From a virus (lineage: Duplodnaviria > Caudoviricetes): a stretch of 64,000 nt of DNA. The stretch covers positions 557 through 64,556 of the IMG/VR virus record IMGVR_UViG_3300020156_000028; one strand, written 5' to 3'. The position numbers were made by a program, and so were the translations under genes. The notes under the pieces were generated by a model, which saw nothing but the letters and a program-made list of their open reading frames with translations, made no database searches and was not told where the DNA came from. Shown piece by piece: positions 1 to 64,000 of this stretch. The first letter of the stretch is position 1. Every line of letters starts with the position of its first letter.

Positions 1-25
1 AAAAAGCCCGGCTCGATTGCCGGGC
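1..25 (-). terminator. Rho-independent terminator downstream of primase gene
   Basis: Minus strand reads GCCCGGC-AATCGA-GCCGGGC-TTTTT, 50 nt after the primase stop; U-tract may be cut by window edge. Confidence 0.7.
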
Positions 26-74
26 GATTACGGGTGTGGGTAAGTCAATCTTCATCGACAGGATAAAAGTCCCA

Positions 75-2858
75 TCATACGTAATCCTCCGCGTTGAAAT
101 CGTCATATTCGGTGTATCCTTCGGCTCCATAGGGGCCTTCCCGGTCGAACCAGATGCCCTTTATGCCGAACCGGGTCCGTCGGTTCGTTCGCTCTCCGGC
201 CTTCCTCCAGCCGAAATTCGGCAGGCTGTGGAAGACTTGCTGGAGCGCTGCGTCGGTCTGCGGGTTGAAGGATGCCTTGTCCTGCTTAAACAGGATTTCC
301 CGAACATCCTTTTCCCGGAAACTGGTGCGGAGGACCATCTGGTCGGCCGATGCTTCGAACGCCTCTTCGACATCACCGAGACCCATCTCCTGCCGCAGCG
401 CGTGAAGGGTGATCGGCGTATCGGCCCAGTCCAACACCTCGCGGACAAGCCGCTCCGTCAAGGATTCGAGCCGTGCCCCGTTCTGGCGCATCACGGCCTC
501 GGTAATTGCTTCTTCCGACCGGAACTCCAGCGGCAGGTCGCCTTCGGGCGTAGCGGCCCGCATGGCGGCGTGCCATGTCATGGCCTCGGCCCATATCTGG
601 TCGCGCTCGCGCTCCAGCTTGTCGGTGTCTATGCGGTTGACGTGTACACGCAGCATCAGATAGGTGCGGTTTCCGGTGTCGTCCTTGAGCACCTTGTCCT
701 GATTGGTGGTGCCGACGAGCGCGAACTGGCGGGGAAGCTCGGCGATATGCTGCATGTAGGCCATGCGCCAGTTGTCCTTGACCTTGCGCGAGAAGGATTT
801 GAGATGGTTCGCATCGGTCTTGGTGAAGCCCGCGAGTTCGGGCATTTCGAGGAGCCACGCGCCGCCGATCTGTTCCGCGATCCGGCCGAAGTCGTCCAGC
901 CGGGCGTGCAGTTCGCCGAACCACGCCCGACCCGCGAGCCGGTTGACGAAGGTGGATTTGCGCGTGCCCTGCCCGCCCTGAATGATCAGCATGTTGTCCC
1001 ATTTGAAGCCGGGGGTCATGACCCGGTAACAGGCGGCCGTCAGGAACATCCGCGCGACCTCGCGCGCGTAGGGTGTGTCGGCCTCGCCGAGATAGTCGAT
1101 GAACAGCCGCTCGGCCCTTGGCACGCCATCCCATTTGAGGCTGGTCAGGTACTCCCGGATCGGATGGAAGCCGTTGGTGCGGGCCACGTTGTCCACGGCC
1201 ATGCGAATGTCGCCGACGGCCACGCGGACGCCGTATCCGGGGATTTCGTCACCGCGCGGTGACTCGAAGACGACATGCAGGGCGTTGTCCATGTGGTCCT
1301 GCCACGGATCGCCGTTGATCGGGTCCTTGCAAACGAGGGGCTTCATGCCCTTGAGCCCGAAATCGATGGTGCCGAGAAGCACGGTGCGCTGCGTGAACTC
1401 GTTGAAGCCGATCTTGCCCCAGAAACGCTTGTCGAACTGGAGGATCAGCTTGATGTTGGACAGCGAGGCCACGAGGTTGCCGTCCTGATTGGTCTCCAGC
1501 AGCTTCGTGAACCAGCCTTTCGGCGGCTTGATGAACTTCCGCTTCGGCGCTACCCGCTCTTTTTCGGGCTCTTCGTCGGCGGGCTCTTCGGGTTCGATGC
1601 CGTCGAAGGCCGCTTCCCATTCAGCGCGTCCATCAGGTTCTCCAGTTGCGTCGGGCTGATCCCCTTCTTCAACCGGATCGTCATGGTCGTCGGTTTCTTC
1701 TTCATCGCTCTCGTCCTCTTCGATGTCGGCAAAGCTCTCCAGCCCGGCGTATTTCCGGGCCGCGACCGCTTTGCGATAACCGGGATCATCCTTGATGAAC
1801 TCGATCATTTTCTTGTAGCTCGGCCGGTCGCTGACCTTCTCGAAATCCTTGTCCTTGTCCTCCTCGCCGAAGAGGTGGATTCGGATCAGGTCGAAGGCGT
1901 TGACCAGTTGTTCGGCGCAGGGGTCCGTACCGTGGAACGAATAGAGGAACTTGCCCTCGTAGATGATCGCGCCGTTCGAAGAGGTGGCGTCCCGATACGA
2001 ATAGCGCGGGTTGCCGGAGTGCTCGTCACCGGGCGTGTAGAAGCCCGGAATGAACTTCTCCATTGCGACTTCGATATCAGGATAGGCCCGGCAGAAATCG
2101 CCGACGGGGCCGCGTTTCTCCAGCGGGTCTTCGGCTTTCTCGGCGCGCTGGCGGAACTCGCTATCGCCTTCGTCGGGGTGGTGCGGCAGCTTGGAAATGT
2201 CTTTCCAGCTTCCGTGGACCTCTTCGATCTCGTCAAGGAAGGCGTCAACGTCGAGGACTTCGGTCCCGGCACCGTCCTGAACGTGGTAGTAGTAGTGCGG
2301 CCGGTCGTCCTTGGAACAGGTCGGCAGGAACATCATCTGGACCGGCCGGAACGTGACCTTATCGACCGTCCGCATGGTCTTGTCGATCAGATAGGCGAAG
2401 TGCCGGGTGATCGCCACGTACTCGTCAGCGGTGACGGCGCGACTCAGCGGGAAAAAGCCACGGATACGCGGCTTGTCCGGGGTGTGCCGCCGCGACGAGT
2501 GCCAAAGGCCGACGAAGTGCGAGACCGGGAAGACGCCCGCGTCGATCATTTCGATGATCCCGTCGAAGGGATAGTCGATATCGAGCGTCATCAGGTCGCG
2601 GTCGCGGAGGTTCTTCTTGTTGCGCCAGTGGCCGTCGAAGGTCGCGCCGCTGATCCAGCCCGCCATCTTCTTGAGGTCGTCCTGCGCCTCTTTCGAGAGC
2701 TTGTCGAAGGCTTTACGCTTCTCGGGGGTGACGAGCGGCGAGGCGAACTTCTTTTTGAAGGTCGCCCAGTGGCCCGCGTAGTTCTTGTTCTTGGCGAGGT
2801 TCCGGCCGCTGCCTTCGGACCAGTGCAGCGTCAGGAGATCGTGTTTAGAGGAGGGCAT
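75..2858 (-). CDS. Primase/helicase (N-terminal primase-polymerase-like domain, C-terminal VirE/VapE-like P-loop NTPase)
   Basis: 927 aa; LDID and HSSRRHTPDKPRIR primase motifs, Walker A GGQGTRKST, ELAGF and GTTN..LKDDTGNR VirE motifs, acidic linker. Confidence 0.9.
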   Translation of the reverse strand: MPSSKHDLLTLHWSEGSGRNLAKNKNYAGHWATFKKKFASPLVTPEKRKAFDKLSKEAQDDLKKMAGWISGATFDGHWRNKKNLRDRDLMTLDIDYPFDGIIEMIDAGVFPVSHFVGLWHSSRRHTPDKPRIRGFFPLSRAVTADEYVAITRHFAYLIDKTMRTVDKVTFRPVQMMFLPTCSKDDRPHYYYHVQDGAGTEVLDVDAFLDEIEEVHGSWKDISKLPHHPDEGDSEFRQRAEKAEDPLEKRGPVGDFCRAYPDIEVAMEKFIPGFYTPGDEHSGNPRYSYRDATSSNGAIIYEGKFLYSFHGTDPCAEQLVNAFDLIRIHLFGEEDKDKDFEKVSDRPSYKKMIEFIKDDPGYRKAVAARKYAGLESFADIEEDESDEEETDDHDDPVEEGDQPDATGEPDGRAEWEAAFDGIEPEEPADEEPEKERVAPKRKFIKPPKGWFTKLLETNQDGNLVASLSNIKLILQFDKRFWGKIGFNEFTQRTVLLGTIDFGLKGMKPLVCKDPINGDPWQDHMDNALHVVFESPRGDEIPGYGVRVAVGDIRMAVDNVARTNGFHPIREYLTSLKWDGVPRAERLFIDYLGEADTPYAREVARMFLTAACYRVMTPGFKWDNMLIIQGGQGTRKSTFVNRLAGRAWFGELHARLDDFGRIAEQIGGAWLLEMPELAGFTKTDANHLKSFSRKVKDNWRMAYMQHIAELPRQFALVGTTNQDKVLKDDTGNRTYLMLRVHVNRIDTDKLERERDQIWAEAMTWHAAMRAATPEGDLPLEFRSEEAITEAVMRQNGARLESLTERLVREVLDWADTPITLHALRQEMGLGDVEEAFEASADQMVLRTSFREKDVREILFKQDKASFNPQTDAALQQVFHSLPNFGWRKAGERTNRRTRFGIKGIWFDREGPYGAEGYTEYDDFNAEDYV

Positions 2859-4019: not shown

Positions 4020-5264
4020 GTGACCGAAGAAATCCAAGAGCACGCTACGAGATCGCCGTCTGGAGCCCACGGATGGCGGCGTTGTCCCGGAAAGATCAAC
4101 GCCGAACGCGGTCGGCCCGATAGGGTCGGCCGTGAGGCCGCCGAAGGGACGGTGTTTCACGACGCGGCGGAAATCTGCCTGTTGACAGGGATCGATCCGC
4201 AGTTCTTGCCCCAAGGGGAAGAGGTCGTGGTATCGGGCCATACCGTCTCTTTTAACCAAGAGATGGTCGATCACATGCTAGGCGGCCTCGATCTTATCGA
4301 AGAGTTGATGGAGCCGGGATGTATAATCAGGGTCGAGGAGCAGGTCTCTATTGAGTCCTATACGCTGGAGCCCGGTGGGTTCGGCACCTCGGACGTGATT
4401 ATCATCTACCCGCATCGGCGGAAAATCATCGTGTTCGACTGGAAATACGGCAAGGTGGCCGTCTCTCCCATCGAGAACGATCAGGCTATACTTTACGGCC
4501 TCGGTGCGTGGGATACCGTAGCCGGGGAACTGTTCGACTGGAACCCGGAGGGGATCGAGGTCGAACTGATCATCTATCAGCCTCGCATCCCGGACGGCGG
4601 CGGCCGGTGGGAGACGACCATGGAATGGTTGCTCGAAGAGGGCGACCGGATCAGGATCGACGCGGCGGCCACCTACGACCCGAACGCGCCTCGCGTGGCC
4701 GGGGAGAAGCAATGCAAGTATTGCCGGGCGCGCGCGGACTGTGCCACGCATGCTGCTTATAATCTCGGCATGGTGGGGCTCCGGTTCGAAGATATTGATG
4801 AAGGGATTCAGTTCGACGTGACGCCGCCGCTGGTTGAAGATTTCGAGGGTTGGACGCCCGAACGCATGTCCTATGTCTGGCTGCACCGCAAGGCCATAAA
4901 ACGCTGGCTGGACGCGCTCCATGACCACATGATGGCCCGATATGCGGCTGGCGAGGAACTGCCGTTCCTCAAGGTCGTGAAAGGCCGGGGCGGCAATCGC
5001 TTCTGGCAAGACCCGAAGGCGGTCGAGCGCTATCTGGTGGCGCAGGTCGGCGAGGAGAAGGCATATCAGCCTAAGACGCTGATCACGCCGCCGGTCGCCG
5101 AGGAGTTGCTGGGCAAGAAAAAGGTCAAGGAAGACTTGGCCCTGTATATCGGCCAGCCGGAAGGCAAGCCGACGCTGGTGCCGATCACGGCATCCGGCGA
5201 CCCCCTTCCGTCGAAGATGGTTCAGTTCGACGGGATCGAAGCAGACGAAGATGGAGAAGAGTGA
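4020..5264 (+). CDS. Cas4-like PD-(D/E)XK exonuclease (DUF2800)
   Basis: HATRSPSGAHGWRRCPG, EGTVFH, GTSD..FDWKYG, QCKYCRARADC Fe-S cysteines. Confidence 0.88.
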   Translation: MTEEIQEHATRSPSGAHGWRRCPGKINAERGRPDRVGREAAEGTVFHDAAEICLLTGIDPQFLPQGEEVVVSGHTVSFNQEMVDHMLGGLDLIEELMEPGCIIRVEEQVSIESYTLEPGGFGTSDVIIIYPHRRKIIVFDWKYGKVAVSPIENDQAILYGLGAWDTVAGELFDWNPEGIEVELIIYQPRIPDGGGRWETTMEWLLEEGDRIRIDAAATYDPNAPRVAGEKQCKYCRARADCATHAAYNLGMVGLRFEDIDEGIQFDVTPPLVEDFEGWTPERMSYVWLHRKAIKRWLDALHDHMMARYAAGEELPFLKVVKGRGGNRFWQDPKAVERYLVAQVGEEKAYQPKTLITPPVAEELLGKKKVKEDLALYIGQPEGKPTLVPITASGDPLPSKMVQFDGIEADEDGEE

Positions 5265-5902
5265 TGGCAGAAACACCCGTTGGGGAAGTCTTGCTAACGA
5301 ACGTGCGGCTTAGTTTCGCCGACCTCGATAAGCCGGGCAAGCCCCAGAAAAACGACAACGGCGAGATGGTGCCGGGAAAGTACAAGGCCAACGGTCTGAT
5401 TTCTAAGACCACCGCCGAGGGCAAGGCCAATATGGCGAAGCTCAAGCGCGCGGCCGAGGACGTGAAAAAGAAGAAATGGGGTGACAAAATCCCCAAGCTC
5501 AAGGCCGACCGCGTTTGCGTGCGCGACGGCGACGAAGAGGACTGGGAAGGCTATGCCGGGCACTACTACGTGTCGGCGAACAACCCCGATAAGCCGGTCC
5601 TGATCACCAAGCAGAAGGACAGCAAGGGGAAGTGGATTCCGGCCAAGCCGGGTCAGCTTTATTCCGGCTGCTACGTCAACATGCTGGTGCGTCTTTGGGC
5701 GCAGGACCATCCCGACTATGGCAAGCGTTTGAACGCCTCGGTCGAAGCCGTGCAGTTCTCCAAGCATGGAACCGCTTTCTCCGGTGGCGGGCCTATCGAC
5801 GCGGACGAAAAGTTCGCGGAGATCGAAGCCGAGGAAGGCGAGGACATGGACGGCGGCGGCTACGATGACGAGGAAGACGAAGACATCGACAGTGTTGTTT
5901 GA
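5264..5902 (+). CDS. Single-stranded DNA-binding protein (DUF2815)
   Basis: NVRLSFADL, YSGCYVN, AVQF motifs and very acidic C-terminus. Confidence 0.88.
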   Translation: MAETPVGEVLLTNVRLSFADLDKPGKPQKNDNGEMVPGKYKANGLISKTTAEGKANMAKLKRAAEDVKKKKWGDKIPKLKADRVCVRDGDEEDWEGYAGHYYVSANNPDKPVLITKQKDSKGKWIPAKPGQLYSGCYVNMLVRLWAQDHPDYGKRLNASVEAVQFSKHGTAFSGGGPIDADEKFAEIEAEEGEDMDGGGYDDEEDEDIDSVV

Positions 5903-45598: not shown

Positions 45599-46264
45599 TT
45601 AAACCACGCTGGCTATCTCGGTCTCGTAGGCCGCAACATCCAGCGGGTCGTCAAAGAGGGTGTTCTGGTTGCCCCAGACCGTCCAGCCAGCGCGGGACTG
45701 ACGGCCGAAAAGCTCCAAATACGGCCCGTGGGTGAGCTTCACGATGCTTTCCGGTACTTCATCCGGTTTGCGGCTATGTTCGCGCCGTGGGGCCAGAATG
45801 AGCCGCCTGACGCTCTTGCTGACGCGCTTCGGACTCCGGTAGGTCGCGAGGAACGACCGCTCGCACTCCTGTTCGTCCTCGCCGAAGTCGCACTCGTAGG
45901 CGTGTTCCGGGTTGGCGCGCGTCCAGAACCCCGTGCCGATGGGGAAGGTGCCGGGCTCTTTCCCGGTCTTGGCCCAGTAGAAGCCGACCGTTTTGTACTT
46001 GAAGCCCCAAGCTCGGATCACGTCGAGCGCGATCTCGGCATGGCTATCGATCACCCAGAAGTGCATGATCGCGCCCTCGGGATGGCAAAGGTCGCGCACG
46101 GGCAGGGCCTTGATCTGGTCCAGAGTCATCGTCTCGTAGTGATTGTCCGGGCTCTTGCCGAGGCCCTTGCCGGACCATGTGACGTATTTCCACGGCACGT
46201 CAACATACAACGTCCGGTAGTGTTTCTTGCGGAGACCCGCGAACGGCCCTTCGGTGATCAGCAT
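45599..46264 (-). CDS. MT-A70 family adenine methyltransferase
   Basis: YRTLYVDVPWKY, HYETMTLDQIKALPV, AWGFKYKT, GTGFWTRANPE, REHSRKPD, LELFGR..R.GWTVWGNQ. Confidence 0.9.
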   Translation of the reverse strand: MLITEGPFAGLRKKHYRTLYVDVPWKYVTWSGKGLGKSPDNHYETMTLDQIKALPVRDLCHPEGAIMHFWVIDSHAEIALDVIRAWGFKYKTVGFYWAKTGKEPGTFPIGTGFWTRANPEHAYECDFGEDEQECERSFLATYRSPKRVSKSVRRLILAPRREHSRKPDEVPESIVKLTHGPYLELFGRQSRAGWTVWGNQNTLFDDPLDVAAYETEIASVV

Positions 46265-46274
46265 CCCATTTCCT

Positions 46275-46463
46275 TCACACAAAGTCGGCTATGTCGAAAT
46301 CGTCTTCCGGGACCGCAGCCTCCATGGCCTGTTCAAGCGTGTCCGCGATGAAGACCCGGAACGAGCCGTCGTCATTCCGGGTCGATACTTGCCAGCGACG
46401 ATCCGCCGTGGGGAAGATCGTCAGGCCGTTGGTGGCTTCAATGCGATGAAGCCAATCGATCAT
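46275..46463 (-). CDS. Hypothetical protein
   Basis: 62 aa, ATGA-coupled to GapR gene. Confidence 0.6.
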
Positions 46464-58133: not shown

Positions 58134-58700
58134 TCATTCCTTTTCGGGATCAATAGCCGAGGCCAGCGCAATCGTGCAGACCGGGCTATCCTTCGGGATG
58201 GCACCATCACGGGACCAACGTTCACGGCAGACTTGGGTAGCTGCGAGCTTCAACTCCTGCGCCACCATCTTAGGGGATGGGGACTCTGCTACGTCGGTAG
58301 TAAAAACCGCCGGGTTGTCGTTCACTTCGGCGAGGGCCTGATAGAGCAGCTTGCCGCAGCGGTCGAGCTTGGCTTCGTCGGCGAGCCGGAGTTCTTCGAA
58401 ACAATCGGCGTTGGCCTTGGCTGTGGGGCCGAGGGCGATCCTGATCCGTGCGGCCATATCTGTTTCAGGGGCATGAACATCTTCGCCTCCATCTACGACC
58501 TCAAGCGGGGTGCCATAGGGCTTGAAAGCCAGCGCGATATCCGAGGGTGATGGAGCAAAAGTGACCAAGCCCAGACCCACGACCGCGAGAAGCGGGGCGA
58601 GCAGGGTTCCCAAGAAGTCGCGCATTTGAGCCCTCGTATTGAGATCGTCAGGGTGATCAGCCGTGCGAATCGTCGGCTGCATTTCCTCCTCATAGCGCAT
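58134..58700 (-). CDS. Membrane-anchored protein with Cys pairs
   Basis: TM LLAPLLAVVGLGLVTF, then four Cys in the predicted periplasmic part. Confidence 0.65.
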   Translation of the reverse strand: MRYEEEMQPTIRTADHPDDLNTRAQMRDFLGTLLAPLLAVVGLGLVTFAPSPSDIALAFKPYGTPLEVVDGGEDVHAPETDMAARIRIALGPTAKANADCFEELRLADEAKLDRCGKLLYQALAEVNDNPAVFTTDVAESPSPKMVAQELKLAATQVCRERWSRDGAIPKDSPVCTIALASAIDPEKE

Positions 58701-58713
58701 TGCAAGTTACCTT

Positions 58714-58929
58714 TCACGTCTTCCAGTCCGAACCGCCAAACATTTCCAGTACATTAGGCTTTACGAACATGCGCTCGCCTTCATTCGAAACCAGTGTGGC
58801 GTGGCCTGATTTCGGGCCGAGGGAACCGGCGAGGTCTCCAAGGTAGGAGGCGGTCGCCGAACCGGGACCCGGCGAGGTTTCCAAGGTAAGCCGACCCCCT
58901 CGAAAGGTCAAACTATATACAGACAGCAA
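58714..58929 (-). CDS. Possible small hypothetical protein
   Basis: 71 aa, TTG start, no clear RBS; contains a 20-bp direct repeat (58826, 58869). Confidence 0.3.
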   Translation of the reverse strand: MLSVYSLTFRGGRLTLETSPGPGSATASYLGDLAGSLGPKSGHATLVSNEGERMFVKPNVLEMFGGSDWKT

Positions 58930-58994
58930 GGTTCCGGGCCGGATCGACGGGCCGCCTCGGGGCCGGGTCGCCGAGGGCCGAGGAGTCGGTGCCG

Positions 58995-59102
58995 TTAAGG
59001 TTAACCGTTAGGGTTAAGAATTAAGGTTAACGCGGGGTTAACGTTAAGGCTTTGGTAAGGTTACGAATTAAGGTTAACCCGGCTTACGGGGCATTTGATT
59101 AA
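58995..59102. promoter_or_regulatory. TTAA cluster with perfect CtrA box
   Basis: GTTAA-CGCGGGG-TTAAC at 59026-59042 (TTAA-N7-TTAAC on both strands); 10 TTAA in 108 bp; TTAAGGTTAAC three times. Confidence 0.7.
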
Positions 59103-59114
59103 AATTTTAGATAT

Positions 59115-59317
59115 CCCGGTCTCCCGGCTGGCGGTTGCCCGGTCTCCCGGCTCCCGGCTGGCGGTTGCCCGGTCTCCCGGCTGGCGGTTGCCCGGTCTCC
59201 CGGTTGCCGGTTGCCCGGTCTCCCGGCTGGCGGTTGCCCGGTCTCCCGGTTGCCGGTTGCCCGGTCTCCCGGCTGGCGGTTGCCCGGTCTCCCGGTTGCC
59301 GGTTGCCCGGTCTCCCG
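59115..59317. repeat. 23-bp tandem repeat array
   Basis: CCCGGTCTCCCGG(C/T)TG(G/C)CGGTTG, 8 units plus a partial; unit 2 has a 7-bp insertion. Confidence 0.95.
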
Positions 59318-59432
59318 ATATTTCCGCCAAAACGGGCCGCCAGCGCGCGCGGGAGATGGCTAGGCTAGGGCTATGGCCTAAAACACTGAATCGCGTTGTA
59401 CGGCCGTTTATGAGCGATTGTAGGCATAGGAC

Positions 59433-59461
59433 AAAAAAAAGCCCGGCTCAAAGCCGGGCTT
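59433..59461 (-). terminator. Rho-independent terminator of the terminal operon
   Basis: Minus strand AAGCCCGGCT-TTG-AGCCGGGC-TTTTTTTT, just after the stop at 59465. Confidence 0.88.
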
Positions 59462-59464
59462 GCG

Positions 59465-59677
59465 TTACTTCCTTCCTGTTAGCTTGTCTAATTCATCATC
59501 CGGGCTTGGCTTGGCTAGGTGAAAAACCCATGCGCCAAACAATCCGGCTAATATTGCCGGGAGTCCGTGCCATAGCGCGGCAAGCAATCCCCCGGCCAGA
59601 CTGGCAATCTGTAGCAACGTCGCCGTGCGATATTGCGTAATATGGATTGCCAGTCTGGATTCATCTTGCGGCCTCAA
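59465..59677 (-). CDS. Small two-TM membrane protein
   Basis: Hydrophobic LLQIASLAGGLLAALW..LPAILAGLFGAWVF; start overlaps upstream stop. Confidence 0.6.
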   Translation of the reverse strand: MRPQDESRLAIHITQYRTATLLQIASLAGGLLAALWHGLPAILAGLFGAWVFHLAKPSPDDELDKLTGRK

Positions 59678-60588
59678 ATGCCCGCGCCTTCATTGAAGGC
59701 AGATTGCAACGTTTCATCCCGGTTCCAGAACTGGAGTCCGTCATAGTCGCCTTCTTTGAGCGATTCCATTTTAGACAATAGTTCCCGCCGCTCTTCCAAT
59801 AGCTCTTCAAGGCGTTCCGATAGCATCTCCCGCAAGTTTTCAGGCAATGCGCGCAACGTTTCGCAATTCCCCTTAATATTGGAGATGGCACGCAAGATAA
59901 CCTTGCGCAAATCGCGATATTTCTTGCGCGTTTCGCCGTATAGGTTCCCGGCTTGCCACGCGGTTTGATATTCCCGTTCCTTTTCGGCCGCGCGCGCGGC
60001 CATGGAGTCGGCCGCTCTTGCCATATCCCTAGCCGTTTCCATATCGGCCGGATTTGTTTCCGTTCCCTGATATACTTTGCCGTCAGGCACTACTTGATAT
60101 GAGTACCGCGTGGACTCTTCCCGTATGTCTGAAAAATCGATTGTCGGGCCGCCATCGTGGCCGCCAAACTCATAACCCGCGACAAACCGGCACTGGCCGC
60201 CGCGCGCGGGCAATTGGTACACAAGCCCATAGCAAAGCCCGGAACCGTCTTTGTATGTTTCTCCGTCGGGATACGTGTACCAGCCGCTGGACTCGCTCCA
60301 ATAGCCGTTACGCATGCCCGGTTCCGCTTGCACGCGGCCGACAAGCCGTAAGCCGCAAGACTCCGGGCTTTCCACATAGGCAATGCGGCGGCCGCCATCT
60401 TGCCAGCTAACGGCCGGGTACAGCTTGCGCCATGGGCTAGAAGCGTAGTGCTTCATTCCCTGTTCCATGGCGGCCCGTGCTTCCTTCAAAGCTTCCCATG
60501 CCGGACGGATTTGCCCGGCTCTTGAACGCGGAGATGCAAAGGCGCGATAGCGATTGAAGGCGCGACGTAGTTCGATTGAAATAGCCAT
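59674..60588 (-). CDS. Hypothetical early protein
   Basis: 304 aa, AAGGAG RBS; GWYT...GLVYQLP..G...F.AGY, C-terminal coiled coil. Confidence 0.8.
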   Translation of the reverse strand: MAISIELRRAFNRYRAFASPRSRAGQIRPAWEALKEARAAMEQGMKHYASSPWRKLYPAVSWQDGGRRIAYVESPESCGLRLVGRVQAEPGMRNGYWSESSGWYTYPDGETYKDGSGLCYGLVYQLPARGGQCRFVAGYEFGGHDGGPTIDFSDIREESTRYSYQVVPDGKVYQGTETNPADMETARDMARAADSMAARAAEKEREYQTAWQAGNLYGETRKKYRDLRKVILRAISNIKGNCETLRALPENLREMLSERLEELLEERRELLSKMESLKEGDYDGLQFWNRDETLQSAFNEGAGI

Positions 60589-60599
60589 TTGAGACTCCT

Positions 60600-61982
60600 T
60601 TAGTGTGAATCAGTAAGAGCGGCGCGCATTTCAGTTTCGCCGATAGTTTCGGCGAATAGACCTAGTGACTCCGCAATGCGGGAGACTTCATTCCAGCCGA
60701 TATTGTGGCAACCGGCCTTAAAGTTACCTTGCGAGTCGATGGAATCTATTTGGAAGTGCCCAACGCGGATTTGCTTTCCATTGCGTTGCCATTCCGCGCC
60801 ACGTTCCCGGCAATAGCGAATTACATGAAACGCCTTGATTGCATGGGAAAGCGGTACTTCCGCGCCATGGCTTGTTTGCAGCACGTCGCCGACAATGCGG
60901 AGTAGAGCGCGGCCGTTTTCATCACTCCCCCGCCAGTAGCGATTGCCGTTCCCGGCAAGCCAATCCGCGCGCGCGGCCTGCTCCCGTTCGAAGCGTTCCC
61001 GCTCTTCACTCGCCTTCAATTCATCGTGGCGGGTTTGGAGCTTGATTGCCAGTGTCGCGGCCTTAGTAGCATCGACTCCGTGGAACGTTTCGAAAATCCG
61101 AATATGTCCTATAGCTTCCTGATAGTAACGCCGTTCCGTTGCGCCGTCCTGAATAAGTTCAAGCAACTGGCGGAACGCAAGTTTGCGCCTTCGGAATGAC
61201 ATAAGCCTATCAGACAAGGCCGCGTTACGTGCAAAGCGGCGTTTCTTGGCATTGATATACTTTGTACGGGCTTCAATGTGAGCCGTTACACGCTTGCCAC
61301 CATACTTTCGGCATGCGGCCAGCATTGCCCGGAAGTCTTTGTAGATATCCGAAAGGTTTTCATGCGGCCGGGTTTGCCGCCATCTCTTGTATCTTTCACC
61401 ATCGTCTTTGACGTAGATAGTATTCTCCCGCATGGAAATGCGTTCTATCTCCGCTTCAAACTCCGCTTGCGGGACTTCATTCATGTATCGCGTGGCTTTT
61501 AGAACAAGATACTTTTCTTGTTCTTTGACTTGTTCGGCCGCAATCTTGGCCGCCTTCTTTTCATGCTTTGCCCGGATGGACTCCCATGGGGTTTTACGCT
61601 TGGCAAGCGTTATCAGATATTGAGCGGAGTCCGGGCTAATCTCCCGCCAGTGTTGCGCCAAGTACCGCTCAATGTGAAACCAAAGGTTAGACCGCAACAG
61701 GCGGTTTGAATCTGCGAGTTCCGTCAAATCCGGAAACTCCAATGTAGTGCCACGGGCCGCGCGCCAAGTCTGACTCTTGTGTTTTCCCGTCGAAGTCGAA
61801 TATCGGGAAGAATTGAGTAGGGTCACGCCGTCCGGCATAACGTAACCCAGCATGTAATGCCGTCCATATGAATATATGGCGCGGCCTTCAAAGAAAACGC
61901 GGTTATCAGACCGGCGGCCGGATTGTTGGGACTGATTAGCCCAAACGTGGAAAACCATATCGCCATTGAAAACTTTTCTCAT
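60600..61982 (-). CDS. Hypothetical early protein
   Basis: 460 aa, TAAGGA RBS; HVWANQ.Q..GR...FFEG.AIYSYG.HY and TSHGAEVP...GCHNI motifs. Confidence 0.82.
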   Translation of the reverse strand: MRKVFNGDMVFHVWANQSQQSGRRSDNRVFFEGRAIYSYGRHYMLGYVMPDGVTLLNSSRYSTSTGKHKSQTWRAARGTTLEFPDLTELADSNRLLRSNLWFHIERYLAQHWREISPDSAQYLITLAKRKTPWESIRAKHEKKAAKIAAEQVKEQEKYLVLKATRYMNEVPQAEFEAEIERISMRENTIYVKDDGERYKRWRQTRPHENLSDIYKDFRAMLAACRKYGGKRVTAHIEARTKYINAKKRRFARNAALSDRLMSFRRRKLAFRQLLELIQDGATERRYYQEAIGHIRIFETFHGVDATKAATLAIKLQTRHDELKASEERERFEREQAARADWLAGNGNRYWRGSDENGRALLRIVGDVLQTSHGAEVPLSHAIKAFHVIRYCRERGAEWQRNGKQIRVGHFQIDSIDSQGNFKAGCHNIGWNEVSRIAESLGLFAETIGETEMRAALTDSH

Positions 61983-61993
61983 TGCTTTGTTCC

Positions 61994-62479
61994 TTAGTAC
62001 ACGTTGTTTAGGATTGAATCGCCATGCGCCATATAGTCCACGGCAAAGGCGCGTTGGTTCTGGATATACCGCTTGTGTAGCTGATAATACTTGGCTTGCC
62101 CTATCACCTCCGCGCGGAGTAGAGCGGCAAGCTCTTGCCCGGTGTCGCCGTCACCATAGCGCGCGAAAATATGCCGCTCTTGTTCCCGGCATGCTCGAGT
62201 CTCGCCTTCAAGATTGAATGGCGCGTCTAGGACAAGGTGACACCAATCATGCCAAGCCCGGAACGCCTGATTTACTTCCCGGCAGTCAAAGACAGTGGAG
62301 TCGCTGGACTCGGAGTAGACAGTTATCCGGCCGCGCGCGGCCATCTCCGCTTTAAGGCGACGTAGCGAGTCCGGCGCGTCCGGGCTTGTGTCAAAGCCTT
62401 GTGGCCAAACGCGGTTGCAGCATGCCAGCACGGCGACATTGAAGAGCGGCAAGAGCGGCTTGAAAGACAGTGTAGACAT
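61994..62479 (-). CDS. Hypothetical early protein with HDxxH metal-binding motif
   Basis: NQAFRAWHDWCH...F..EGE...AEVIGQ; GGAG RBS. Confidence 0.75.
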   Translation of the reverse strand: MSTLSFKPLLPLFNVAVLACCNRVWPQGFDTSPDAPDSLRRLKAEMAARGRITVYSESSDSTVFDCREVNQAFRAWHDWCHLVLDAPFNLEGETRACREQERHIFARYGDGDTGQELAALLRAEVIGQAKYYQLHKRYIQNQRAFAVDYMAHGDSILNNVY

Positions 62480-62679
62480 TAGGCGACTCCATATCTGAAT
62501 TGTGCGTAGGCGGCCCGCATGGCCGCTTTCTCGCGTTTTGTGGGGATGTATGGCGCGGGAGTAGCTTGTTCCCGCTCTTGTGCGCTGGCGGCCTTCCTAA
62601 GCTCTTTTTGAGCCGTGGCGCGCATGCCGATAGCGGCGTAATATTGAGCCGCGCGGAGATGGCTTGCGGCGGTTTTCAT
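62479..62679 (-). CDS. Small early protein
   Basis: 66 aa, coupled at both ends. Confidence 0.65.
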   Translation of the reverse strand: MKTAASHLRAAQYYAAIGMRATAQKELRKAASAQEREQATPAPYIPTKREKAAMRAAYAQFRYGVA

Positions 62680-62933
62680 TCGCTTGCTCCCGGCATTTCG
62701 ACATCATAGCCACGGGCTTTCCATTCCCGCATGGACAGTTGGAACATGCCGGGCTTGTCGCCTTGCGGGAACCGCGCGGCAAACTCGGCCGCAACGCGCA
62801 TTGCCTCTTCTTTGTCGCGGCCCGCATAGACCGCACAAAAATGTGTCACGTCAAAGCGCGGCTTGTCGGGAGTCGAGTTCCACGCGGCCCGGTTAGTGAC
62901 GATGGCGACGTTAAGGTGAAAACCGTCATTCAT
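62676..62933 (-). CDS. Small early protein
   Basis: 85 aa, TAAGGAG RBS. Confidence 0.7.
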   Translation of the reverse strand: MNDGFHLNVAIVTNRAAWNSTPDKPRFDVTHFCAVYAGRDKEEAMRVAAEFAARFPQGDKPGMFQLSMREWKARGYDVEMPGASE

Positions 62934-62944
62934 GGCTGGACTCC

Positions 62945-63220
62945 TTAAATCAGGTTGATTGCGTAGCAGGTGACAGAGATGGCAATCCCGGCGGCCGCGA
63001 TGGCAAGCGCCAGAAACTCGCCGTTGGTATTGTCCTCCCGCAATTCATCGATAGCGGCGGATATCCGGGCATGAATGGCGGCCGACTCTTCCTTAGTCGG
63101 AACGTGGCGGGAGTTAGTTAGAATGTATGCGGCTTGCGCGCGTTCGATGGTTAGCCAATCGATGGCACGGGCTTTGTTGCCATTGTGGCGGTCTAGGATG
63201 GCTTTCGTGTAGGCTTGCAT
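62945..63220 (-). CDS. First early gene, C-terminal TM helix
   Basis: AAGGAG RBS before MQAYTK; ends FLALAIAAAGIAISVTCYAINLI. Confidence 0.7.
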   Translation of the reverse strand: MQAYTKAILDRHNGNKARAIDWLTIERAQAAYILTNSRHVPTKEESAAIHARISAAIDELREDNTNGEFLALAIAAAGIAISVTCYAINLI

Positions 63221-63261
63221 TGGTAGACTCCTTGCGTCCGGGCAAAAGCGCCCGTGCCTCT

Positions 63262-63421
63262 TTATGGCATGCCCGGCGGCCGCTAACAAGCAAATAGTGT
63301 AGTTTTCTACACTTTACCCTCTTGACTATCGGAAATAGGGCATGCGTTAGGCCAAGTGTAGCTTCATACACGTCTAATCGGCCATAGCGGGCCGTAGGCG
63401 CGCAAGTGTAGCTTTATACAC
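63262..63421 (-). promoter_or_regulatory. Early promoter with three GTGTA-N6-TACAC palindromes
   Basis: CTTGTT-N17-CCATAA (63290-63262); palindromes at 63297, 63356, 63406. Confidence 0.65.
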
Positions 63422-63554
63422 AATCACCCATGACACCCCCGGAATCCGCGTGTACGGGCAATTTTGGGGTTTTCACGTTCTGTTCACGGTTTTATTGTCA
63501 ACGTGTAGCGAACAATAAAAGTGTAGCTATTAACCGGGCCGCGTTTGGCGCATG

Positions 63555-63845
63555 CCGGGCATGGGGTATATTAGCGTTTTCTATTGTATGTATAGTCTAC
63601 CTACTAGGTCGGCATTGCGGCCTTGTGTTGGGTATGAGCGGCCGCCGGGCATGGGGGTAGCCCGGTTAGTCTACCTAGCGGGTAGGGATTAGCCGGTTGC
63701 AAGTCGCAATCGGATTTTCGATTTTCTGTTTTTGTCCGGGCATGGGGTTGCAGGTGGTGGCGGGTGTCCGGGTGTCCGGGCATGGGGTTGCAGGTGGTGG
63801 CGGCCATGGGGTGTCCGGGTGGCGGGTGTCCGGGTGGCGGGTGGT
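63555..63845. repeat. G-rich terminal repeats
   Basis: CCGGGCATGGGG at 63555, 63645, 63736, 63776; 30-bp duplication at 63734/63774; several GGTGTCCGGG. Confidence 0.8.
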
Positions 63846-63988
63846 AGAGTGTTGCCCTGTATAGGTATATTAGCAGTTGGTTATGTTTCGCATGCGCTGG
63901 CGTGTGCCCGGCTTGCGGGTGTCCGTTGGTTCCCGGCGGCCGGGTGTCCCGGCTACGGGTCCCTCCCCCTGTCGGCGGTCTGCCGGGG

Positions 63989-64000
63989 GATGCGCAGAGC
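63989..64000 (+). other. Probable cos site (12-nt cohesive end)
   Basis: GATGCGCAGAGC ends the window; one base from the Chi cos as I recall it (GGTGCGCAGAGC); GpA-type terminase present. Confidence 0.65.

Follow-up and report, generated by a model that had tools for sequence, protein, structure and literature searches.

A GATC-free operon at the cohesive right end of a Chi-like soil phage and its possible origin in position-specific restriction avoidance

The operon at the right end of a phage genome assembled from soil lacks the tetranucleotide GATC altogether. The window, i.e. the whole stretch of 64,000 nucleotides (nt) that was analysed, comprises bases 557-64556 of the 64,556-nt virus record IMGVR_UViG_3300020156_000028 (CheckV completeness 100%). 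Within it the last GATC starts at 58942, and not one is found in 58946-64000, a run of 5055 nt that extends up to the right genome end and holds seven leftward genes. The other 58.9 kb of the window, referred to here as the bulk, contain 518 GATC (8.8 per kb). The best reading of this pattern, although a tentative one, is position-specific restriction avoidance in leading, early DNA. An earlier inspection of the same DNA (the original prediction) had proposed that the terminal 5 kb are a GATC-free segment for first-step transfer ending at a stop signal. Its basic numbers were reproduced: the recount returned no GATC in 58946-64000 and nine in 411-1446, the expectation of about 19 sites from base composition was recomputed as 18.7, and the GC content of the stretch is lower than that of the bulk (0.562 vs 0.610).

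The absence of GATC goes beyond what composition predicts. A second-order Markov model expects 11.8 sites (Poisson P = 7e-6). Shuffling of synonymous codons within each of the seven genes yields 8.5 +/- 2.4 sites, none of 2000 shuffles reached zero (minimum 2), and the 1230 nt of non-coding DNA add about 1.2 expected sites. When the contexts CGATCG and RGATCY, which are avoided genome-wide, are excluded, the genes are expected to hold 5.0 sites, and 0.23% of 3000 shuffles have none. In a series of 8160 tests (136 tetranucleotides in 60 overlapping 5-kb windows), no other local depletion was as extreme as that of GATC in this stretch. GATC has thus been removed from the operon beyond what protein sequence and codon usage allow; the bulk genes are enriched in it (502 vs 425 +/- 13 expected). 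At the left genome end, outside the window, GATC recurs at genome positions 83, 123 and 225, and the site-free run therefore stops at the cohesive end (cos).

This accessory operon belongs to a cos siphophage of the Casjensviridae (Chi-like) type, whose genome of 64.6 kb is complete. A PHROG scan recovered a lambda-type packaging and head module with TerS (phrog_141), TerL (phrog_15, 1e-196), a gpW-like adaptor and a portal, together with a protease, a decoration protein, the major head protein, a tape measure and siphovirus tail genes. In PHROG and Pfam scans, replication genes further form a block at the left end, and a long series of leftward genes, early or middle ones, includes an MT-A70 adenine methyltransferase. 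Membership in the Casjensviridae type is given by this module, by the genes of a long-tailed virion and by collinearity with classified members. The best classified relative, Synechococcus virus S-ESS1 (Casjensviridae, Sessunavirus), is collinear and shares 53% identity in TerL, and the closest relative overall is an IMG/VR contig, G001, with 71% identity in TerL and 50-83% amino acid (aa) identity along the backbone.

Inward from the right end follow cos, G-rich repeats, three palindromes, the seven leftward genes and a terminator. Further inward lie an array of 23-nt units, a TTAA/GTTAAC cluster, two 25-nt palindromic repeats and the next leftward operon. The individual features are:

63988..64000, unstranded: cos candidate GGATGCGCAGAGC, 13 nt, identical to the first 13 nt of the genome
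63733..63850, unstranded: right-end repeats, two exact 31-nt copies each with GGTGGTGG, then short repeats of the GGGTGTCCGG type (families D3 and D8)
63297..63421, unstranded: three GTGTAG-N4-CTACAC palindromes at 63297, 63356 and 63406, upstream of the operon (family D6)
62945..63289, minus strand: first gene, 114 aa from TTG 63289, hydrophobic C-terminus
62676..62933, minus strand: 85-aa protein, no family match in PHROGs and Pfam scans
62479..62679, minus strand: 66-aa basic protein, no family match in PHROGs and Pfam scans
61994..62479, minus strand: 161-aa protein, phrog_7806 (function not assigned)
60600..61982, minus strand: 460-aa basic protein, isoelectric point 9.8, phrog_7247 (function not assigned)
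59674..60588, minus strand: 304-aa protein, phrog_8188 (function not assigned; PHROGs 3.9e-31), no Pfam family
59465..59677, minus strand: last gene, 70-aa protein with a hydrophobic core, the only operon gene common to G001 (54% identity)
59439..59461, minus strand: intrinsic terminator, 10-bp stem with 7 G-C pairs followed by a T run, closing the terminal operon
59100..59329, unstranded: tandem array of about 7.5 copies of the 23-nt unit CCCGGTCTCCCGGCTGGCGGTTG (Tandem Repeats Finder range 59146-59317)
58992..59102, unstranded: TTAA/GTTAAC cluster with 10 TTAA, including the box TTAACGCGGGGTTAAC at 59027-59042
58821..58888, unstranded: two copies of a 25-nt imperfect palindrome of the GGGAACCGGCGAGGTCTCCAAGGTA type, upstream of the next leftward operon (family D13)

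This layout supports a discrete terminal unit beside the cohesive end that is transcribed inward and closed by a strong terminator. GGATGCGCAGAGC at both ends of the record probably represents the cohesive end written twice, as the lambda-type terminase would lead one to expect. Most of the parts that had been predicted are in place, namely the seven leftward open reading frames (ORFs), the operon's own terminator at 59461-59439 and, at the inner border, the repeat array and the TTAA cluster. The predicted promoter of its own fared less well: a sigma-70 consensus scan gave two matches, both on the plus strand, and shuffled sequences give 3.2. It is the layout and the GTGTAG-N4-CTACAC palindromes, which appear operator-like and have exact matches nowhere else in the genome, that would point to such a promoter. 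At four of the seven gene starts (window 59677-63245) the start codon follows AAGGAGTC or GGAGTC, so that the Shine-Dalgarno sequence overlaps a GANTC (CcrM-type) site. The first gene is more likely a 91-aa reading frame from ATG 63220, which follows AAGGAGTC. Between the terminator of the operon and the next leftward operon lies TTAACGCGGGGTTAAC, a perfect CtrA-type box by consensus (TTAA-N7-TTAAC) and hence a predicted CtrA site. The TTAA cluster and this box are kept in G001 (L029, about 5390-5410), as are both GGGAACCGGCGAGGTCTCCAAGGTA-type palindromes (L029, about 5550-5620), which look like operators.

The operon is also a sharply bounded domain at the DNA level with weak codon adaptation. 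Four further words, none of them palindromic, are depleted in its genes relative to synonymous shuffles:

CTGC/GCAG: 7 observed, 30.5 expected
ACGA/TCGT: 5 observed, 20.3 expected
CCTC/GAGG: 5 observed, 17.3 expected
CAGC/GCTG: 13 observed, 28.2 expected

All four are low equally on both strands, and the cause must therefore lie at the level of DNA and not of RNA; its nature is what we infer below. In the bulk genes the same words have ratios of observed to expected counts (O/E) of 0.87-1.03, and GATC one of 1.17. The switch is abrupt gene by gene: all seven operon genes are depleted in the five words, and every gene between 52.4 and 58.7 kb is near expectation for them, including the genes at 57.7-58.7 kb that are poor in GC at third codon positions (GC3). 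These GC3-poor genes hold 9 GATC (4 and 5) vs 6.6 expected, a count that sums two annotated ORFs overlapping by 92 nt. GCWGC (2 vs 11.6) and AAWTT (0 vs 7.7) are also low in the operon. GC3 is 0.56-0.66 in the operon vs 0.75-0.85 in the bulk, and codon choice (59465-63289) runs to 38 CAA vs 14 CAG and 65 GAA vs 31 GAG, with CTG in only 14 of 99 leucine codons and CTA, CTT and TTG preferred over it, a pattern unlike that expected of a phage with 61% GC. Codon contexts such as xAC followed by GAx are strongly avoided (3 vs about 12). The original prediction had singled out GATC, and GATC is indeed absent, but the domain is depleted in at least four word classes besides it.

Such a domain raises the question of whether composition and chance would suffice. 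The operon could be poorly codon-adapted early or accessory DNA in which words run 2- to 3-fold low, the zero for GATC being the tail of that distribution, and in the bulk GATC would be frequent through the preferred codons ATC, GAC and TCG. The low GC3 of the operon fits this account, as does the scarcity of GAT and ATC, both about 40% rarer in the operon; the remaining words of the domain have O/E of 0.23-0.46 after synonymous shuffling, and the homologous modules of relatives are at Markov expectation for GATC despite a 2- to 10-fold lower density. Moreover, the feature was found post hoc, and with the avoided contexts set aside the expectation is only 5.0 sites (P = 0.0023). Relaxed codon selection, however, predicts near-expected counts once codons are shuffled, and the GC3-poor neighbouring genes keep their 9 GATC. 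The depletion also ranks first among the 8160 tests, its extent matches exactly that of a functional unit ending at cos, and a like feature in another palindrome occurs in S-ESS1 (P ~1e-11). We regard composition and chance as an improbable explanation.

Avoidance of restriction sites is a general property of this lineage. Eighteen palindromic hexamers, each with a Markov expectation of at least 10, are absent from the window, for example GCCGGC (0 vs 100) and CGATCG (0 vs 73), and so is CCWGG (0 vs 183). CTGAAG is also absent from the window. CGATCG and RGATCY together occur once vs 106 expected, though GATC overall is enriched in the bulk genes. G001, S-ESS1 and a further genome, G002, are likewise purged, each of a partly different hexamer set (GCCGGC, for instance, occurs 149 times in G001). 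The terminal operon follows the set of its own genome, with one site (CTCGAG at 62194) vs about 49 expected for the hexamers that the bulk lacks. This operon avoids GCCGGC and tolerates CGGCCG, and the S-ESS1 module avoids CGGCCG, as does the S-ESS1 bulk. In the five genomes examined, no word avoided in the bulk was tolerated in the terminal module. With palindromes below both codon-aware and Markov expectation on both strands, it is demonstrated that the lineage evolves under heavy restriction-site avoidance. Genome-wide avoidance as generally found in phages is alike in that palindromic type II targets are depleted in lineage-specific sets, and unlike in that the avoidance of GATC is here limited to one 5-kb unit anchored at the end. 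GGWCC was considered as a second word avoided only at the terminus and was rejected, internal windows being depleted as well. A shielding of TCGCGA, ATCGAT and TCATGA by overlapping GATC methylation was also rejected, most copies lying outside such contexts.

Position-specific avoidance would link these observations as follows. The right-terminal operon would be the DNA that enters and is expressed first, its end being packaged last as in lambda. A GATC-directed host nuclease would select against sites in this operon only, where a cut would be lethal as long as the phage has not established its own protection or takeover, and GATC in the remaining 59 kb would be tolerated in a T5-like manner. 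Such a scheme presupposes that the right end enters first and that bulk GATC is safe for a specific reason. In T5, as set out in parts of two sources (PMC10644984; bioRxiv 10.1101/866236), restriction sites matter only in the DNA of the first-step transfer. The anchoring at the end, the sharp functional boundary, the hexamer set shared with the resident genome and the parallel in S-ESS1 are best explained by position-specific selection. The rank of GATC as the top depletion, together with end anchoring, the location of homologous cassettes at contig ends in 17 of 30 cases and the T5 rule, also counts in its favour. This reading does without an entry pause, a stop signal at the 23-bp array or gating by CtrA, all of which are hypothetical, and the full model of the original prediction, which combined a pause at the array with CtrA gating, is a small subset of it.

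The similarity to the T5 first-step-transfer region lies in a terminal block of mostly function-unassigned and poorly conserved genes with repeat-rich non-coding DNA beyond, and in sites being absent from the end block and tolerated elsewhere, which is the T5 sequence pattern as far as the above sources describe it. The differences are equally clear. The ends here are 13-nt cohesive ends and not a 10-kb direct repeat; the record ends share only these 13 nt, and no longer terminal repeat that could hold pre-early genes, as in T5, exists in the 64,556-nt record, which speaks against the original model. A T5-type stop region is, by parts of the same accounts, a highly conserved, repeat-rich non-coding stretch (PMC10644984; bioRxiv 10.1101/866236). 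By contrast, the 23-nt array is not shared even by the closest relative, G001: the homologous intergenic region of that genome keeps the neighbouring TTAA cluster and palindromes, but in place of the array it holds only an 11-nt x 2.3 repeat. In addition, the bulk is purged of about 18 hexamers and of CCWGG, unlike T5 second-step DNA with its general shield. A search of the six-frame translated genome with T5 A1 (556 aa) and A2 (135 aa) gave no match at E <= 0.01, an empty result that is uninformative in itself, and genome scans gave no A1- or A2-like PHROG or Pfam match. A 414-aa exonuclease at 4020-5264 was considered as A1 and rejected as Cas4/PD-(D/E)XK-like. phiCbK, according to part of one report, encodes an A1 homologue outside its terminal repeat (PMC3556154). 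What survives of the first-step-transfer idea is therefore the discrete terminal unit, the loss of GATC and the avoidance in the lineage; the GATC content of relatives, the lack of a long repeat and the non-conserved array do not agree with it.

Homologous modules of relatives permit a wider comparison. Many named phages have members of the 304-aa and 460-aa families close to the ends of their records, phiCbK-like phages have them inside their 10-kb terminal repeats, and the 460-aa family is found widely among phage contigs of about 60 kb. It lies at most 6 kb from a contig end in 25 of 44 IMG/VR loci and, in contigs of at least 45 kb, in 17 of 30 vs 5.5 expected; among the 44 loci, two pairs are the two ends of one phage each, and two others are S-ESS1 and G002 themselves. 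In the 42 loci compared for density (two were dropped for too-short flanks), GATC around the gene is below that of the flanks in 38 and under half of it in 27. The modules as a whole have a GATC density 2- to 10-fold lower than the bulk, and pooled Markov O/E values are 0.91 for the module vs 1.08 for the bulk, so that the general dip of GATC in relatives is mostly compositional, with the signature of weak codon adaptation also seen in this operon. Individual terminal modules have the following GATC counts:

S-ESS1 terminal module: 19 observed, 19.9 expected (Markov)
G002 terminal module: 16 observed, 12.0 expected (Markov)
phiCbK repeat: 21 observed, 19.1 expected (Markov)
G001 terminal cassette, with different genes: 33 observed, 26.8 expected (Markov)

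The word-specific loss of GATC is thus peculiar to this phage and perhaps a few other loci. GATC-free runs of 2.4-3.3 kb occur in three of the loci (L049, L065 and L069).

Perhaps the operon is instead a mosaic cassette, swapped between related phages, that has kept the word usage of a GATC-avoiding donor genome without any effect of position. Exchange as such is demonstrated. Up to 58134-58700 G001 is collinear with the window, and the TTAA cluster, the palindromes and the 70-aa gene are common to both. The last 4.9 kb of G001, however, carry unrelated genes, which makes the operon a swappable cassette. The domain departs from the bulk in codon choice and, on both strands alike, in the frequency of many words, and its shift in word usage correlates with that of the homologous modules of 40 relatives (Spearman 0.75 for density and 0.66 for O/E), in which GATC is the most depleted word (0.44x) and CTAG the most enriched (2.5x). 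A genome-wide purge of a short word is also possible in this clade, as seen for CCWGG. Yet no donor is known, the best homologues among 5.8 billion proteins having 44% (460-aa) and 50% (304-aa) identity, and all 44 related loci contain GATC outside the module, with a bulk density no lower than 2.3 per kb. The operon obeys the lineage-specific hexamer set of the resident genome, and the 70-aa gene common to G001 also shows the depletion of the domain, albeit with small numbers. Two further genomes would need separate imports for their own end-anchored site-free runs. A history of exchange alone is a possible explanation, though a doubtful one. If it holds, a mobile and compositionally distinct terminal module would be common to Chi-like, phiCbK-like and other alphaproteobacterial phages.

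A parallel to the operon is found in S-ESS1, where GGSCC is missing from a run of 3822 nt up to the right end (NC_052968 56540-60362, L003). In the last 4.8 kb of that genome GGSCC occurs 3 times vs 34.1 expected (P ~1e-11) and in its bulk 255 times vs 274, and an unbiased scan ranked this run as the strongest local anomaly of S-ESS1 among 9576 tests. GGSCC-free runs cover the cassette also in L046 (2232 nt, anchored at the end) and in L059 (3995 nt), the latter without nucleotide similarity to S-ESS1. The top anomaly of G002 is terminal as well (CGCC/GGCG, 79 vs 167), and the anomalies of G001 are weak. Generalising end-located anomalies across loci is only suggestive.

A number of observations weigh against position-specific avoidance. 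The homologous genes in S-ESS1, G002 and the phiCbK repeat contain GATC at Markov expectation, which is the outcome that had been set beforehand as a refutation; the terminal cassette of G001 has normal GATC, and the pooled O/E of the relatives points the same way. GATC was depleted at P<0.01 in 4 of 42 windows over the module vs 2 of 87 over the bulk, an excess that is not significant, and the strongest anomaly falls on the cassette in 15 of 38 further loci vs 10.6 expected (P = 0.08). Within the operon, the depletion of non-palindromic words is as strong as that of GATC and has the look of a general signature more than of one enzyme's site, and if GATC shared the O/E of about 0.4 of those words a count of zero would have P ~0.01. 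Avoidance of hexamers and CCWGG in the bulk means that the bulk is exposed to type II enzymes, so that its 518 GATC sites, if protected at all, would need a protection specific to GATC. No operon product resembles a known anti-restriction protein in PHROGs, Pfam, fold searches or protein properties. Finally, iterons are present at both ends of the genome, so that packaging polarity cannot be read from the repeats, nor can the order of entry.

Alternatively, adenine methylation and not cleavage could have made the operon free of GATC and rich in GASTC. Either the operon would lie outside the target set of the phage MT-A70 methyltransferase or of a GATC-binding factor, or dense CcrM-type sites would tie its expression to the host machinery that reads methylation in the cell cycle. 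The phage does carry an MT-A70 adenine methyltransferase gene (45599-46282, Pfam 1.8e-19), and according to part of one study the small adenine methyltransferases of alphaproteobacterial phages have been shown to be GANTC-specific (PMC5537653), a specificity that would suit this explanation if it applied to the MT-A70 enzyme here. GANTC reaches 6.1 per kb in the operon vs 2.5 per kb in the bulk; against synonymous shuffles of the operon GASTC is in excess (20 vs 9.2) and GAWTC is below expectation (6 vs 11.9). The terminal modules of G001, G002 and S-ESS1 likewise have a GASTC density 3.5- to 5.7-fold above that of their bulk; in the modules of the 40 relatives GAGTCC and GACTCC rank among the most enriched hexamers, and the predicted CtrA-type box at the border is conserved. 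GASTC in the modules of relatives mostly has S flanks, and the bulk under-represents GANTC. On the other hand, part of the GASTC excess is the Shine-Dalgarno sequence AAGGAGTC at four of seven starts, and tolerated sites gave no sign of a placement in Dam-overlap contexts. Furthermore, we know of no mechanism that would make unmethylatable DNA necessary for early expression. Both versions taken together are highly improbable.

Phages other than T5 provide further comparisons for the preferred reading of restriction avoidance in leading DNA. T7 expresses its anti-restriction gene 0.3 (ocr) first, from an early region at the leading end, and transcription drives the entry of its DNA. As in T7, promoter-proximal genes face inward from what would be the entering end, a terminator closes them, and the exposure of the genome to host nucleases would be ordered in time. 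Unlike T7, this phage is a siphovirus with a lambda-type cos terminase and without a phage RNA polymerase or an acidic DNA mimic. In phiCbK-like phages the terminal-repeat genes gp005 and gp008 (NC_019405) correspond by homology to the 304-aa protein and to the C-terminal domain of the 460-aa protein. They too are terminal and transcribed inward, and GATC is at 2.5 per kb inside the repeat vs 10.1 outside. The differences are that GATC in the repeat is at Markov expectation, that the genome exceeds 200 kb and that the repeats measure 10 kb.

A wider reading would be that Casjensviridae-type alphaproteobacterial phages, and perhaps phiCbK-like ones, stage infection in a T5-like fashion without T5 genes. 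A swappable pre-early cassette of 4-5 kb at the last-packaged end would enter and be expressed first, and would be purged of whichever word is cut locally, GATC here and GGSCC in S-ESS1. It would supply counter-defence, with the pair of 304-aa and 460-aa proteins as prime candidates, and expression or entry of the remainder would be released at the control region with the CtrA box, tying takeover to the swarmer-cell state. Taken as a whole with all of its components, this reading is decidedly improbable. The open-access literature searched gave no description, for Chi-like or Caulobacter phages, of an early module that is site-free and anchored at the end. If end-anchored site-free runs do mark the DNA exposed first, entry polarity would be readable from sequence even for uncultured phages, and the relevant host nucleases would likewise be identifiable from sequence alone. 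The widespread pair of phrog_8188 and phrog_7247 would then be candidates for counter-defence or takeover, and the T5 rule for leading DNA would extend beyond the Demerecviridae to cos phages.

The proteins encoded in the operon offer few functional clues. A Pfam family was found in none of the seven, three fall into PHROGs without assigned function, and there is no acidic DNA mimic among them. For the 460-aa protein, the N-terminal part resembles DUF8033 clusters, and in its family N- and C-terminal domains are conserved, with invariant His and Cys residues. Its best homologue among 5.8 billion proteins has 44% identity, and single-protein scans for close relatives returned none in IMG/VR or the JGI metagenome contigs. 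The 304-aa protein has 100 other homologues, the best at 50% identity. Fold searches used full-length models of these two proteins. The AlphaFold2 model of the 460-aa protein has a predicted local distance difference test score (pLDDT) of 93.6; Foldseek returned nothing at E <= 0.001 and VIA-align only helical hairpins (Z <= 8.9, residues 259-327). The model of the 304-aa protein (pLDDT 88.0) combines a beta-rich N-terminal half with a long helical hairpin and gave no informative fold match either: Foldseek was again empty at E <= 0.001, and VIA-align again aligned helical hairpins alone (Z <= 8.6 over residues 202-293). A PDB sequence search with the 304-aa and 161-aa proteins gave no matches, and neither did Pfam scans of four homologues.

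At the nucleotide level, megablast matched the stretch to none of 50,697 phage records, and blastn gave only patches of 43-91 nt in Caulobacter phages, including phiCbK-like terminal repeats. The window sequence is also present in contigs of three soil-metagenome DNA runs, identical to the window and thus without information on polymorphism; no RNA run is among the listed holders of the stretch. A second contig of 6 kb from a related phage in the same soil samples has 85-90% identity to pieces of the border region (58181-59078). A possible joint from 59078 to 63371 in this contig, which would skip the operon, is just 24 letters long on its shorter side and was set aside. At the left end, several copies each of the iterons GGTCAC(G/A)GGT and TGGGTAA (window 1-600 and genome 1-556) sit downstream of the primase-helicase gene and are candidate cosB or origin elements. 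At the right end, GGTGGTGG, which we take to be a Chi-like word, lies at 63753-63760 and 63793-63800 on the plus strand, about 200-250 nt from the end and oriented such that an exonuclease entering from there would meet its 3' side; elsewhere in the window it has five copies, three on the plus and two on the minus strand.

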